27,026 nt of DNA, taken from a virus. Location: the UHGV virus genome UHGV-0327176. One strand, given 5' to 3'. Both the position numbers and the translations under genes were made by a program. Positions 1,075 to 6,847 of the stretch are shown one piece after another; positions within the stretch are counted from its first letter, which is position 1; each line of letters starts with the position of its first letter. Below the pieces are notes generated by a model. The model was not told the origin of the DNA, made no database searches, and saw only the letters and a list, made by a program, of their open reading frames with translations.

Positions 1075-1717
1075 TGGCAGCAAATACCGAAATATTTGGG
1101 TAGTTGGCGATCTGCACGGATGCTACACGAACCTGATGAAAAAACTGGAGACGATAGGATTCGACACCAAAAAAGACCTGCTTATCTCGGTTGGCGATTT
1201 GGTCGATCGCGGTACAGAGAACGTTGAATGCCTGGAATTAATCACATTCCCCTGGTTCAGAGCTGTACGTGGAAACCATGAGCAAATGATGATTGATGGC
1301 TTATCAGAGCGTGGAAACGTCAATCACTGGCTGCTTAATGGCGGTGGCTGGTTCTTTAATCTCGACTACGACAAAGAAATTCTGGCTAAAGCTCTTGCCC
1401 ATAAAGCAGATGAACTTCCGTTAATCATCGAACTGGTGAGCAAAGATAAAAAATATGTCATCTGCCACGCCGATTATCCTTGTGACGAATACGAATTTGG
1501 AAAGCCAGTTGATCATCAGCAGGTAATCTGGAACCGCGAACGAATCAGCAACTCACAAGACGGGATCGTGAAAGAAATTAAAGGCGCGGACACGTTCATC
1601 TTTGGTCATACGCCAGCAGTGAAACCACTCAAGTTTGCCAACCAGATGTATATAGATACCGGCGCAGTGTTCTGCGGAAACCTCACATTGATTCAGGTAC
1701 AGGGAGAAGGCGCATGA
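1052..1717 (+). CDS. ninI: NinI Ser/Thr protein phosphatase (lambda PPase type)
   Basis: Metallophosphatase motifs GDLHG, GDLVDRG and GNHE are present. The sequence from [23 protein letters not shown] matches lambda phosphatase (221 aa). I chose the ATG at 1052; the ORF track starts at a GTG at 1043. Confidence 0.9.
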
Positions 1718-2337
1718 GACTCGAAAGCGTAGCTAAATTTCATTCGCCAAAAAGCCCGATGATGAGCGACTCACCACGGGCTACGGCTTCTGACTCTCTT
1801 TCCGGTACTGATGTGATGGCTGCTATGGGGATGGCGCAATCACAAGCCGGATTCGGAATGGCTGCATTCTGTGGTAAGCACGAACTCAGCCAGAACGACA
1901 AACAAAAGGCTATCAACTATCTGATGCAATTTGCACACAAGGTATCGGGGAAATACCGTGGTGTGGCAAAGCTCGAAGGAAATACTAAGGCAAAGGTACT
2001 GCAAGTGCTCGCAACATTCGCTTATGCGGATTATTGCCGTAGTGCCGCGACGCCGGGCGCAAGATGCAGAGATTGCCACGGTACAGGTCGGGCGGTTGAT
2101 ATAGCAAAAACAGAGCAGTGGGGGAGAGTTGTTGAGAAAGAGTGCGGAAGATGTAAAGGCGTCGGTTATTCAAGGATGCCTGCAAGCGCAGCATATCGCG
2201 CTGTGACGATGCTAATCCCAAATCTTACCCAACCCACCTGGTCACGCACTGTTAAGCCGCTGTATGACGCTCTGGTGGTGCAATGCCACAAAGAAGAGTC
2301 AATCGCAGACAACATTTTGAATGCGGTCACACGTTAG
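1714..2337 (+). CDS. Q: Late-gene antiterminator Q
   Basis: 207 aa [34 protein letters not shown]..., recalled as essentially lambda Q, including the zinc-binding CRDCHGTGR...CGRCKG region. Followed by a pR'-like promoter. Confidence 0.95.
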
Positions 2338-2379
2338 CAGCATGATTGCCACGGATGGCAACATATTAACGGCATGATA

Positions 2380-2408
2380 TTGACTTTTTGAATAAAGTTG
2401 GGTAAATT
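2380..2408 (+). promoter_or_regulatory. Late promoter pR' (-35 TTGACT, 17-bp spacer, -10 TAAATT) with adjacent qut region
   Basis: TTGACT at 2380-2385 and TAAATT at 2403-2408, immediately downstream of Q. The flanking sequence agrees with my memory of lambda pR'. Confidence 0.6.
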
Positions 2409-2548
2409 TGATCCAACGATGGGTTAATTCGCTCGTTGTGGTAGTGAGATGAAAAGAGGCGGCTCTTACTACCGATTCCGCCTAGTTGGTCAGTTCGACG
2501 TATCGTCTGGAACTCCAACCATCGCAGGCTGAGAGGTCTGCAAAATGC

Positions 2549-2609
2549 AATCCCGAAACAGTTCGCAGGTAATAGTTAGAGCCTGCACAACGGTTTCGGG
2601 ATTTTTTAT
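2549..2609 (+). terminator. tR'-like intrinsic terminator (end of the short pR' leader / 6S RNA)
   Basis: Inverted repeat aatcccgaaac (2549-2559) and gtttcgggatt (2593-2603) followed by a T-run to about 2607. Position relative to pR' is as in lambda. Confidence 0.5.
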
Positions 2610-2611
2610 TT

Positions 2612-2686
2612 GGGTCAGTCGTATAAAGGTAATTACGGAAGGCTGTTAACCTTCTTATCGTGGTTCGAGTCCACGCTGTCCCGCCA
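2612..2686 (+). tRNA. tRNA, predicted anticodon GTT (Asn)
   Basis: Hand-folded cloverleaf: acceptor gggtcag/ctgtccc (6 of 7 bp), perfect anticodon stem gaagg/ccttc, loop ctgttaa with U33 and anticodon GTT, perfect T-stem cgtgg/ccacg, T-loop ttcgagt, encoded 3' CCA. The D-stem is weak (3 bp). Confidence 0.7.
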
Positions 2687-2691
2687 AACAT

Positions 2692-2767
2692 GCTGGTTTA
2701 GCTCCAATGGTAGAGCAGTCGCCTTGTAAGCGAATGGGTAGCGGTTCAAGTCCGTTAACCAGCACCA
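2692..2767 (+). tRNA. tRNA, predicted anticodon TGT (Thr)
   Basis: Hand-folded cloverleaf: perfect 7-bp acceptor gctggtt/aaccagc, D-stem gctc/gagc, D-loop with GG, anticodon loop cttgtaa (anticodon TGT), T-stem agcgg/ccgtt, T-loop ttcaagt, discriminator A, encoded CCA. Confidence 0.8.
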
Positions 2768-2854
2768 TAACTGAGCCGTAGCCACTGGCTATCCTGGATT
2801 CATCAGTGATAGTTACGCTGCGGCCTTCTACACATGATCTTCGTGAAAGCGGGT

Positions 2855-2889
2855 GGCAGGAGGTCGCGCTAACAACCTCCTGCCGTTTT
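2855..2889 (+). terminator. Candidate intrinsic terminator downstream of the tRNAs
   Basis: Perfect 10-bp stem ggcaggaggt (2855-2864) / acctcctgcc (2875-2884) with a 10-nt loop, followed by gtttt. Confidence 0.4.
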
Positions 2890-3009
2890 GCCCGTGCATA
2901 TCGGTCACGAACAAATCTGATTGCTAAACACAGTAGCCTGGATTTGTTCTATCAGTAATCGACCTTATTCCTAATTAAATAGAGCAAATCCCCTTATTGG
3001 GGCTAAGAC

Positions 3010-3333
3010 ATGAAGATGCCAGAAAAACATGACCTGTTAGCCGCCATTCTCGCGGCAAAGGAACAAGGCATCGGGGCAATCCTTGCGTTTGCAATGGCGT
3101 ACCTTCGCGGCAGATATAATGGCGGTGCGTTTACAAAAACAGTAATCGACGCAACGATGTGCGCCATTATCGCCTGGTTCATTCGTGACCTTCTCGACTT
3201 CGCCGGACTAAGTAGCAATCTCGCTTATATAACGAGCGTGTTCATCGGCTACATCGGTACTGACTCGATTGGTTCGCTTATCAAACGCTTCGCTGCTAAA
3301 AAAGCCGGAGTAGAAGATGGTGGAAATCAATAA
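3010..3333 (+). CDS. S: Holin S (class I, dual-start S107/S105)
   Basis: 107 aa ORF beginning MKMPEKHD (Met1-Lys2-Met3 dual start), with three hydrophobic segments. Recalled as near-identical to lambda S. The upstream sequence ...caaatccccttattgggg... also matches lambda. Confidence 0.95.
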
Positions 3334-3793
3334 TCAACGTAAGGCGTTCCTCGATATGCTGGCGTGGTCAGAGGGAACTGATAACGGACGTCAGAAAACC
3401 AGAAATCATGGTTATGACGTCATTGTAGGAGGAGAGCTATTCACTGATTACTCCGATCACCCTCGCAAACTTGTCGCGCTAAACCCCAAACTCAAATCAA
3501 CAGCCGCCGGACGTTACCAGCTTCTTTCACGTTGGTGGGATGCCTACCGTAAGCAGCTTGGCCTGAAAGACTTCTCCCCCAAAAGCCAGGACGCTGTGGC
3601 ACTGCAACAGATTAAAGAGCGTGGCGCTTTACCAATGATTGATCGCGGTGATATTCGTCAGGCAATTGACCGTTGCAGCAATATCTGGGCTTCACTTCCG
3701 GGCGCTGGTTATGGTCAGTTCGAGCATAAGGCTGACAGCCTGATTGCAAAATTCAAAGAGGCTGGCGGAACGGTCAGAGAGATTGAGGTATGA
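3317..3793 (+). CDS. R: Endolysin R (lytic transglycosylase)
   Basis: 158 aa [42 protein letters not shown]..., recalled as lambda R. It overlaps the end of S as in lambda. Confidence 0.95.
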
Positions 3794-4284: not shown

Positions 4285-4435
4285 ATGTCCTCAGTAAACC
4301 GCGCATTCTCGTGCGCATATCAACCAAGAGCTTTTCGGGATATGAGACAGAGACAGGACGGTGGCTTACATCGTGCCGCTCTTGGGCTGTCCATGTCTGC
4401 GAGAACTGGCTCATATCACCAAAAAGGTAAATACG

Positions 4436-5164
4436 ATGTCCAATATCATCCCGATTGATTTCGAAGGCCATCCCATGCGTTTTTCTGACGATGGCTGGTT
4501 TGACGCGACTGCGGCAGCTGACAAGTTCAACAAGGAGCCGGCTCAGTGGCTTAGGCTTCCTGAGACTGTCCGTTACATCGAGGCGTTAAAGAGTAGATAT
4601 GGGAATATCACATATGTAAAAACCAGCCGCGCTCGCAAAGACCGTGGCGGCGGAACATGGCTTCACCCAAAACTGGCGGTCAGATTTGCTCGATGGCTTT
4701 CTGTAGATTTTGAGATCTGGTGTGATGAGCAAATTGACGCAATCATTCAGGGTTCCGTTCATCATATCGACGATGAAAGAATAAAGGCTATTTTCCTTCT
4801 GGATAAATCTCAGCCATGGGAAAAGAGGTTTAGCGATCCGTTTTATTCTGCGATGTTCAAAATGTCAGGGCTGCCCCGTCATCGACCAGGTCGTCGCCCC
4901 GCACTATTTGGGATGATCAGTGCCAAGTGGGTATATGGCCAGGTATTACCACCAGAAGTATATGCAGAGGTTAAAAGACGGCTGGCTGCGGGAGACAAAA
5001 TCCATCAGCACCTTAAACCTGACGCGCTGACATTGGTTGAGCGACAGATCATTGCCGTTACCAGCATTGCCAATGGGTGCTCTGATTATCGTGATTTCGA
5101 AGCGCGTTGCATGTCGGCATTCCCGGTGAAAGGGCAGATGAAATTGCTCTATGCGGCGGCCTGA
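4436..5164 (+). CDS. KilA-N domain protein with a C-terminal domain I recall as P63C-like (accessory gene)
   Basis: The N-terminal region MSNIIPIDFEGHPMRFSDDGWFDATAAADKFNKEPAQWLRLPE...HPKLAVRFARWLSVDFEIWCDEQIDAI resembles KilA-N (APSES-type DNA-binding) domains. Start chosen at the ATG at 4436 with AAAGG 8 nt upstream; the ORF track extends to a GTG at 4361. Confidence 0.65.
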   Translation: MSNIIPIDFEGHPMRFSDDGWFDATAAADKFNKEPAQWLRLPETVRYIEALKSRYGNITYVKTSRARKDRGGGTWLHPKLAVRFARWLSVDFEIWCDEQIDAIIQGSVHHIDDERIKAIFLLDKSQPWEKRFSDPFYSAMFKMSGLPRHRPGRRPALFGMISAKWVYGQVLPPEVYAEVKRRLAAGDKIHQHLKPDALTLVERQIIAVTSIANGCSDYRDFEARCMSAFPVKGQMKLLYAAA

Positions 5165-5166
5165 TC

Positions 5167-5424
5167 ATGAGCACCCGAATAATAGAATGCGCCTCCAGAG
5201 CGGGGCGCGACTTCTCAGAGTTCATGAAAGGCGAGAAGGGCATGATGGAAGCATTGGCCTCGGTGGATGAGTTTGGCGAGCAGCTGCGCCTCAACGGCTG
5301 TGTCAATCATCACTTTGTTAGCTACATGATGCGGAACTCGATCATGCAGGCATTCATGGACATGGCAAAAGCCGAGAGGAAAGAAGAGCGCCGGCGTAAG
5401 CGAGCGGAAGCAAAAGCGAAGTAG
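5167..5424 (+). CDS. Hypothetical small protein with a basic C-terminal tail, coupled to the KilA-N gene
   Basis: ATG at 5167 lies 2 nt after the KilA-N stop (TGATCATG). 85 aa ending in the lysine/arginine-rich KAERKEERRRKRAEAKAK. No homolog recalled. Confidence 0.45.
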   Translation: MSTRIIECASRAGRDFSEFMKGEKGMMEALASVDEFGEQLRLNGCVNHHFVSYMMRNSIMQAFMDMAKAERKEERRRKRAEAKAK

Positions 5425-5778: not shown

Positions 5779-6276
5779 ATGGCAAAGCTCGCAGACAAAC
5801 AAGAGCTGTTTGCCCATCCGGATGATGTGTATGTCGGAGAGTGTGTGATTTATACCGGCTACATAAATAAGCGAGGGTATGGGCAGAAGCACATTTCACG
5901 AAAGCCGCACTACGCACATCGAATCGCATACTGCGAAGCTAACGGAATTTCGCTAGATAGCATCAAGGACCTGGTTGTTAGGCATAAATGCGATAATCCA
6001 TCATGCGTGAATCCTGACCATCTGATTATAGGTACTGTCGCTGACAATAATCGGGACAGGTCAAGGCGAGGCAGAAACTCATACCCTGACCGTTCAGGTG
6101 AAAAGAACGGAATGGCGAAATTAAAAGAGTGCGATGTCATCTGCATTCGCCGCGAGTATGTGCGCGGGAGTGTAGGTAATGGGCTTAGGTCTTTAGCAAA
6201 GAGATATGGCGTATCCACTACCATGATTGCTGACATCGTTAATCATAGAAATTGGAGCAATGTTTCGGAGGTGTGA
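5779..6276 (+). CDS. HNH endonuclease (terminase-associated)
   Basis: 165 aa ORF with the HNH-type motif HKCDNPSCVNPDHLIIGTVADN and a C-terminal helix-turn-helix-like segment (LAKRYGVSTTMIADIVNHRNW). GGAG ribosome-binding site upstream. Lies immediately before the small terminase. Confidence 0.8.
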   Translation: MAKLADKQELFAHPDDVYVGECVIYTGYINKRGYGQKHISRKPHYAHRIAYCEANGISLDSIKDLVVRHKCDNPSCVNPDHLIIGTVADNNRDRSRRGRNSYPDRSGEKNGMAKLKECDVICIRREYVRGSVGNGLRSLAKRYGVSTTMIADIVNHRNWSNVSEV

Positions 6277-6277
6277 T

Positions 6278-6847
6278 TTGAAACAGCTCACACCTAAGCA
6301 GGAACTGTTCTGCAGGGAATATTTAAAAGATTTAAACGCCACACAGGCAGCTATCAGGGCGGGTTACAGCGAGAAGACTGCCAATGAACAAGCATCACGC
6401 CTGTTAGCAAATGTTAATGTCCAAAACTTTGTCGCCGAACTTAAGGCAGCCCGCATTGAGCAGACTGGTATCGATGCCGCCTATGTTCTGCGACGCTTGG
6501 TTGAGATAGACCAAATGGACGTGCTCGACATCATGACTGATGACATGAGTCTGAAGCCTGTCTCTGAGTGGCCTGCATCATGGCGGCGCTACCTCAGTGG
6601 ATTTGATCTTGCGGAAATGTTCGAAGGACGCGGCGATGACCGAGAGATGGTTGGCATCCTGAAGAAGATTAAATGGCCTGATAAGGTTAAAAACCTTGAG
6701 TTGCTTGGGCGCCATGTTTCTGTTCAGGCGTTTAAAGACAACGTCAAAAATGAAGTGACTGGTGCTGACGGAGGACCAGTCAGAACAGAAATTACCAACT
6801 TAACGCCGGAGCAGGCTGCAGAAGCGTATAAAAAAATGATGGGCTAA
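6278..6847 (+). CDS. Terminase small subunit (P27-family type)
   Basis: The N-terminal motif [34 protein letters not shown] is typical of this small-terminase family as I recall it. I propose the TTG at 6278 (GGAGG 6 nt upstream, 1 nt after the HNH stop); alternative in-frame starts are the ATG at 6260 or 6227. Confidence 0.75.

Follow-up and report, generated by a model that had tools for sequence, protein, structure and literature searches.

A phage 21-type tRNA-Asn/tRNA-Thr cassette behind a lambda-type late terminator: probable replacements for host tRNAs cut by anticodon-stem nucleases

Introduction

The classical explanation for tRNA genes carried by phages is codon supply. A cassette of two such genes, for tRNA-Asn and tRNA-Thr, is ordinary in lambdoid phages, already known and widely annotated in GenBank; annotated copies exist in phage 21, Sf6, SfI, mEp506, Kapi1, and many prophages, and the cassette carries little weight as a discovery. 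The Sf6 record places tRNA-Asn and tRNA-Thr right after the late terminator with the remark "similar to phage 21", and the phage 21 record is annotated likewise. The paper on phage SfI describes the tRNA pair and lists Sf6, ST64T, PS3, and p21 with one or both of the tRNAs (PMC3636060).

Two nucleases that cut host tRNAs bear on the possible use of this pair. Govande et al. (2025) describe P2-OLD as killing mainly by cutting host tRNA-Thr(UGU); cleavage occurs at paired CNG motifs, the prime target is tRNA-ThrU, and tRNA-Asn(GUU) is one of the three tRNAs in the kinetic comparison. The same paper reports that phage tRNA-Thr(UGU) species rescue cells from P2-OLD. [quoted passage not shown] For resistance of tRNA-Thr to OLD, a changed motif alone was insufficient, motif change and shortened stem both being needed, and rescue by a related phage tRNA-Thr needed the UGU anticodon decoding ACA. 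[quoted passage not shown] PARIS protects against lambda (PMC9122126).

Here we describe the Asn-Thr pair in a 27,026-bp stretch of viral DNA (the window, meaning the whole stretch that was analyzed) and compare its sequence, its surroundings, and its anticodon stems with those of these systems.

Results

Two tRNA Genes Directly Follow the Late Terminator

Across the 27,026 bp of the window, ARAGORN calls two tRNA genes and no more, for Asn and Thr, and in an Rfam scan of the whole window no RNA family other than tRNA reaches threshold. Both genes lie above the RF00005 gathering score of 29. The initial annotation had folded by hand two tRNA genes 5 nt apart after tR′, with anticodons GTT and TGT, and the ARAGORN and Rfam calls match that fold in anticodons and coordinates.

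2612-2686, + strand: tRNA-Asn, anticodon GUU (GTT); ARAGORN, Rfam RF00005 55.3 bits
2687-2691, + strand: spacer AACAT, 5 nt, between tRNA-Asn and tRNA-Thr; direct sequence reading
2692-2767, + strand: tRNA-Thr, anticodon UGU (TGT); ARAGORN, Rfam RF00005 61.5 bits

In both genes the 3′ CCA is encoded, and both tRNAs show the loop features of RF00005, namely a 7-nt anticodon loop (CUGUUAA and CUUGUAA) with U33 and a purine at position 37 and a T-loop of the form GTTCRA; the T arms of the two are GGTTCGAGTCC and GGTTCAAGTCC. The tRNA-Asn has discriminator G73, a U4·U68 mismatch, and a variable loop of 4 nt. The tRNA-Thr has G1-C72, C2-G71, and A73, and a G27·A43 mismatch reduces its anticodon stem to 4 bp. 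The identity elements of E. coli AsnRS are the anticodon nucleotides G34 U35 U36 and the discriminator G73, and those of E. coli ThrRS are G1-C72, C2-G71, G35, and U36; the complete AsnRS set is present in the tRNA-Asn of the window and all four ThrRS elements in its tRNA-Thr.

Comparison with diverged relatives, few of which could be aligned, shows five stem differences, and all five (5/5) are compensatory double changes. Three fall in tRNA-Asn (6:66, 7:65, and 28:42, all in the Klebsiella-phage copy) and two in the acceptor stem of tRNA-Thr (3:70 and 6:67, in relatives), four of the five being found in one Klebsiella phage. The mismatches U4·U68 of tRNA-Asn and G27·A43 of tRNA-Thr are kept in the copies of the Klebsiella phage and of a bat-faeces virome phage. 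The compensatory changes argue that these tRNAs are structurally constrained rather than chance cloverleaves, and the small diverged sample is consistent with constraint on tRNA structure.

A pseudo-tRNA or chance cloverleaf is ruled out: both genes score above threshold, their identity elements and CCA ends are intact, and all five stem changes are compensatory. We also rejected an attP-type fragment of a host tRNA gene or a duplicated host gene, as identity to asnT is only 48/76 and to thrU 55/76; moreover, both genes are full-length and lie midway through the late operon, neither of them beside an integrase.

Nucleotide 14 is A in nearly all tRNAs, where it partners U8. In tRNA-Thr this nucleotide (position 2705 of the window), the first of the D-loop, is C; every phage copy inspected shares the C14, among them the phage 21 tRNA that is active in experiments.

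The Pair Lies in a Lambda-Type Late Region

Upstream of the cassette, the window encodes ninG, a ninI-type phosphatase, and then Q; downstream lie S, R, and Rz of lambda type. The features between Q and S, with both genes included, are as follows.

1714..2337, + strand: Q, lambda-type late antiterminator gene, 207 aa; Pfam Antiterm PF03589, E 1.3e-57
2380..2408, + strand: late promoter pR′, TTGACT-17 nt-TAAATT; promoter scan, aligned with the HK446 site annotated "similar to coliphage lambda PR'"
2415..2608, + strand: 6S-type late leader RNA including the qut region, approximate; ends placed by inference from lambda 6S RNA
2549..2611, + strand: tR′ terminator, hairpin 2549-2603 plus U-tract TTTTTTATTT reaching the first tRNA nucleotide; RNA fold, match to lambda tR′
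2855..2889, + strand: terminator-like hairpin GGCAGGAGGT...ACCTCCTGCC (2855-2884), then GTTTT, between the tRNAs and S; fold
3010..3333, + strand: S, holin gene, 107 aa, first late protein gene downstream of the tRNAs; Pfam Phage_holin_3_1, E 2.4e-30

The HK446 homologue of the window Q is recorded as "late gene regulator Q, similar to lambda", and the lambda 6S RNA, by which the leader was placed, is 194 nt long. The tR′ hairpin folds at −28.2 kcal/mol with a z-score of −6.2, and none of 200 shuffled sequences is as stable. An automatic terminator scan of 2200-3100 found none; tR′ was overlooked because its hairpin is long and internally structured, and direct folding shows it clearly. Its T-run (T6) occupies 2602-2607 and is followed by ATTT and then by G2612, so that tRNA-Asn begins 4 nt after T6, in keeping with the 3-4 nt that had been stated initially. 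In lambda, tandem late terminators lie downstream of tR′; the hairpin at 2855-2889 (−28.2 kcal/mol, z −3.8) is kept in lambda, HK446, and Sf6, as seen by alignment.

A promoter scan of 2200-3100 finds the pR′ homologue as the sole sigma-70-like site, by which we rejected a promoter belonging to the tRNAs themselves, and the space between tR′ and the first tRNA is too short to hold a promoter. Since no promoter-like site other than the pR′ homologue lies between Q and S and there is no promoter room after tR′, it is a reasonable inference that the tRNAs would be transcribed mainly upon antitermination by Q, as the initial annotation had proposed.

The tRNAs stand at the very start of the late transcript, 4 nt past tR′ and 243 nt ahead of S, a placement that would also suit a role in RNA processing. 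RNase P and 3′ processing would then separate the late mRNA from the 6S-type leader and alter the stability or translation of that mRNA, with decoding secondary. Excision of a tRNA would necessarily cut the transcript; punctuation of this kind leaves unexplained, however, why the same two specificities are conserved with their anticodons and identity elements and why further tRNAs are added in arrays at the same slot, and we regard it as extremely unlikely to be the main role.

Several further features of the region downstream were noted. The R-like endolysin ORF (3317-3793, 158 aa) matches no Pfam family at E ≤ 0.001, and its neighbors S and Rz give strong matches. A gene with a KilA-N/P63C domain (4361-5164) follows Rz, as in HK446 and HK022, and its end is overlapped by a 105-aa ORF (5107-5424) with no Pfam match. 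An HNH endonuclease gene (5779-6276; Pfam HNH_3, zf-His_Me_endon) runs into the beginning of the gene for the terminase small subunit (6227-6847), a pairing usual in cos-type packaging modules. The window as a whole joins a lambdoid regulatory and lysis module to a contractile-tail module, and its virion genes are like those of Omnitron and SEN34, not lambda-like.

The Cassette Replaces a Lambda Segment of Nearly Equal Length

Anchored comparison and alignment with lambda delimit the exchanged segment.

2610..2768, no strand assigned: tRNA cassette module, 159 bp, in place of lambda 44782-44944 (163 bp)

The lambda flanks of the cassette are 96-97% identical: 264 of 272 positions match lambda on the left, from the stop codon of Q to the T-run of tR′, and 232 of 241 on the right, from AACTGAGCC to the start of S. 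The event is a module swap of nearly equal length, not a pure insertion, and the initial claim that the segment after the tR′ T-run is replaced relative to lambda is borne out by the alignment. The left junction lies inside the U-tract of the terminator, and both junctions fall on sequence shared between modules, TTTTTTATTT on the left, which occurs in lambda-type and 21-type contexts, and AACTGAGCC on the right. ARAGORN finds no tRNA in the Q-S region of lambda, and we accordingly rejected the idea that the matching lambda segment is a decayed tRNA pair. The locus is a clear case of lambdoid mosaicism, with a 159-bp module exchanged at the T-run of a terminator.

The same slot is occupied differently in Stx phages. 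The initial annotation had described it as holding tRNA genes plus the toxin, and the Q-S interval of 933W does contain ileZ, argN, and argO followed by stxA2B2. Between 2768 and S (3010), the window has no ORF of toxin size, as had been noted; the only ORF there is one of 50 aa with a GTG start in lambda-homologous leader DNA. The specificities also differ, as was claimed: ARAGORN reads anticodons CAT, TCG, and TCT in 933W vs GTT and TGT here. With neither the specificities nor a following stx gene, the window does not carry the Stx-phage island, and the genomic slot alone is shared. The Q-S interval thus serves as a cargo slot for tRNAs besides toxins.

Relatives and Variants of the Cassette

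A 160-bp cassette query matches 61 phage records. Identity is 99.4% to phage 21 (OL657228, AJ237660), Sf6, BTP1, SEN22, and others and 97.5-99.4% across most copies in Escherichia, Shigella, and Salmonella phages, and it falls to ~89% in the ST64T/L and JLK-2012 variants. Approximately 344 of 5,426 complete E. coli genomes carry the cassette, and PGAP calls both tRNAs in the rows sampled. Over the first 12 kb of the window, the best complete E. coli genomes align across ~80% at ~95% identity. The tRNA-Thr of the window is 100% identical to that of phage 21 and Sf6; the tRNA-Asn is one D-loop base off the phage 21/Sf6 copy, with A and not C at 2631.

At position 2631, C is found in phage 21, Sf6, HK446, and all four matches in species-representative genomes. 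An exact-match search of the species-representative genomes found no copy of the A20 variant joined to the lambda tR′ junction; a looser junction pattern found four contigs there, all with C at the A20 position. Short contigs from metagenome bins labeled Segatella copri and Collinsella sp., neither of them enterobacterial, contain a tRNA-Asn identical to that of Escherichia phages, flanked by tR′ sequence of 21 type or lambda type; they are most likely mis-binned lambdoid phage contigs.

Other phages have longer arrays in the slot after Q, all built around Asn and Thr: Asn-Phe-Thr-Arg(TCT) in a Klebsiella phage, Asn-Phe-Thr in the bat-faeces virome phage, and Asn-Thr-Gly(TCC) in JLK-2012, the Thr gene of the last being altered. 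The slot behaves as an expandable tRNA array. The annotated tRNA-Thr of JLK-2012 (JQ347801.1 23482-23557) is chimeric, with nucleotides 1-26 identical to the phage-type Thr gene (26/26) and nucleotides 27-76 matching host thrU at 46 of 50 positions; the anticodon stem has a disrupted 3′ strand (UCAUC), and the gene receives no ARAGORN call. The sequence suggests recombination of a phage tRNA gene with host thrU. In Salmonella phage L, of the ST64T family, the second gene of the cassette is annotated as tRNA-Leu(TAA) and is likewise not called by ARAGORN; it differs from the Thr gene by a 4-nt deletion and many changes and, judged by this comparison, may descend from the Thr tRNA through decay or a change of use. 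The listing of ST64T with "one or both" tRNAs in the SfI paper (PMC3636060) fits the picture in phage L.

Such a distribution raises the question of whether the cassette is a neutral passenger, of no current use to the phage and carried along as a mosaic module flanked by the conserved tR′ T-run and the conserved S leader. Junctions placed exactly on the module-shared sequences TTTTTTATTT and AACTGAGCC are what hitch-hiking would leave, lambda manages without the cassette, and some copies are degenerate, with no ARAGORN call for the second tRNA in phage L or for the Thr gene in JLK-2012. Set against this are the 97.5-99.4% identity of most copies, the exclusively compensatory stem changes of the diverged ones, the intact identity elements and CCA ends, and the experiments of Govande et al. 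(2025), in which a Thr tRNA of the same sequence reads ACA and rescues cells. We consider a passenger without function very unlikely.

Codon Usage of the Late Genes

Codon supply, as an explanation of its own, would have the tRNAs raise the translation of late genes where their codon usage departs from that of the host, with no defense system involved. The initial annotation had suggested a comparison of the anticodons with late-gene codon usage, and this comparison gave a 2.1-fold enrichment of ACA in the late ORFs of the window over 40 K-12 genes (10.8 vs 5.2 per 1000; OR 2.1, p 8e-6), the reference being 40 annotated K-12 genes only, from a strain that may not be the host of this phage. AAT is 1.6-fold enriched, both Asn and Thr are commoner as amino acids, and E. 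coli K-12 has a single tRNA with a UGU anticodon. The same ACA bias, 17.3% vs 7.1%, is reported in the SfI paper (PMC3636060).

Other codons, however, are over-used more strongly relative to the host, namely AGG (7.6-fold), AGA (4.7-fold), and ATA (2.3-fold), and ACA and the Asn codons rank lower. With AGG, AGA, and ATA the most over-used codons, codon demand would predict the tRNA set of the Stx phages, not Asn and Thr. In addition, AAC is not enriched in the late ORFs of the window, the late genes of lambda, which lacks the cassette, contain ACA at 8.1 per 1000, a load not significantly different from that of the window (p 0.13), and the SfI authors had no explanation for the Asn tRNA either (PMC3636060). 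Codon supply as the whole explanation therefore seems to us unlikely.

Anticodon Stems Compared with the Nuclease Targets

For the comparison with P2-OLD substrates, the sequence of Thr21 was taken from the phage 21 GenBank record. In host thrU, the anticodon stem has 5 bp and carries C28UG and C40AG; in the tRNA-Thr of the window, the corresponding positions read U28-C29-G30 and C40-G41-A42, with no CNG on either strand. The UGU anticodon, the altered CNG at 28-30/40-42, and the short stem, which together mark the P2-OLD-resistant rescue tRNAs, are all found in this tRNA. Host asnT bears the signature of an OLD substrate, with C28GG, C40CG, and A37; the tRNA-Asn of the window has A28AG and C40UU, so that CNG is gone from both strands, and its stem is still 5 bp long. 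In the Klebsiella-phage copy of tRNA-Asn, CNG is regained on both strands (CAG and CUG), which counts against an anti-OLD role of this tRNA. Comparison of anticodon-stem motifs is a weak test because any diverged tRNA differs from the host somewhere in the anticodon stem.

As to AriB, the U39 of its cleavage site is absent from both tRNAs of the window, which read UAAGCG (Thr) and UAACCU (Asn), and nucleotide 16 in the D-loop, U in host thrU and asnT, is A in both. The two changes that would be expected for evasion of AriB, loss of the U36AAUC/A41 site and loss of U16, are thus present in both tRNAs. Apart from tRNA-Lys, the targets of AriB are precisely the two specificities of the cassette, Thr(UGU) and Asn(GUU). 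ARAGORN and Rfam find no tRNA-Lys(UUU) in the 27-kb window, which speaks against escape from PARIS of the kind shown for T5; the rest of the phage genome lies outside it.

The timing of expression may be a point against rescue by the cassette. The Q gene itself has four ACA codons, and if host tRNA-Thr(UGU) were gone before Q is made, a cassette that depends on Q may come too late.

Discussion

We propose, with a probability of about 0.6, that the main role of the cassette is to supply nuclease-resistant replacements for host tRNAs destroyed by Toprim anticodon-stem nucleases, with decoding of ACA secondary. Counter-defense accounts for the cassette better than codon supply does. The proposed course of events begins with a cassette of the phage 21/Sf6 type joined to a lambda-type Q-pR′-qut-tR′ region, which places the tRNAs at the very start of the late transcript. 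They would be made in quantity only when Q allows readthrough of tR′, and RNase P together with 3′ processing would excise them from the transcript, the CCA being already encoded. During lambdoid infection, the released tRNAs would then stand in for host tRNAs cut by nucleases of P2-like prophages or P4-like satellites. For Thr, the proposal draws on published experiments in which a phage 21 tRNA of the same sequence was used, and for Asn it is drawn from sequence only. A secondary benefit would be extra decoding of ACA, which is rare and read by a single-copy host tRNA.

More tentatively, tRNA-Asn(GUU) could be the partner of tRNA-Thr in a kit that counters Toprim anticodon-stem nucleases and not a codon-usage accessory, a possibility to which we give less than even odds. 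Were it so, lambdoid phages with the cassette would be expected to be less sensitive than lambda to interference by P2 and to some PARIS variants, and the Asn tRNA left unexplained in the SfI paper would gain a defined role.

The cassette itself is that of phage 21 and Sf6, also present in SfI, BTP1, SEN22, and many P22-like Salmonella phages, with the same gene order, the same 5-nt spacer, the same place after the T-run of the late terminator, and the same TTTTTTATTT junction. Compared with phage 21, the Q/pR′/qut/tR′ region of the window is of lambda type, not 21 type, and lysis is by lambda S/R/Rz in place of the pinholin and SAR endolysin of phage 21. The full layout, with lambda-type Q, pR′, and tR′, the Asn-Thr cassette, and lambda S, recurs in HK446, mEp506, vB_EcoP_Kapi1, and phiv205-1, to which the 672-bp Q-S interval is 97.5-97.9% identical. 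The mEp506 and Kapi1 records annotate both tRNAs; the HK446 record has no tRNA annotation, and ARAGORN calls both there. The virion modules of these four phages differ from that of the window, whose structural genes are like those of Citrobacter phage Omnitron and the SEN34-type myoviruses.

The ileZ-argN-argO island of 933W occupies the same slot, between Q/tR′ and the lysis genes, lies within the late transcription unit, and is flanked by terminator-like hairpins. In contrast to the window, 933W has an annotated putative tRNA promoter, pT, its island lies ~370 nt from the first terminator, and the tRNAs are followed by stxA2B2 and further cargo. In principle of action, the proposed counter-defense role is closest to the Lys/Thr/Asn variants of T5 and the tRNA-Thr(UGU) rescue tRNAs of coliphages, in which the phage supplies the targeted isoacceptor with its anticodon arm altered where the nuclease cuts; the cassette of the window covers the prime OLD target and, of the three AriB targets, two. 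The setting differs from that of T5 in that the window comes from a temperate lambdoid phage whose two tRNAs are tied to late antitermination, in place of a large early tRNA array.
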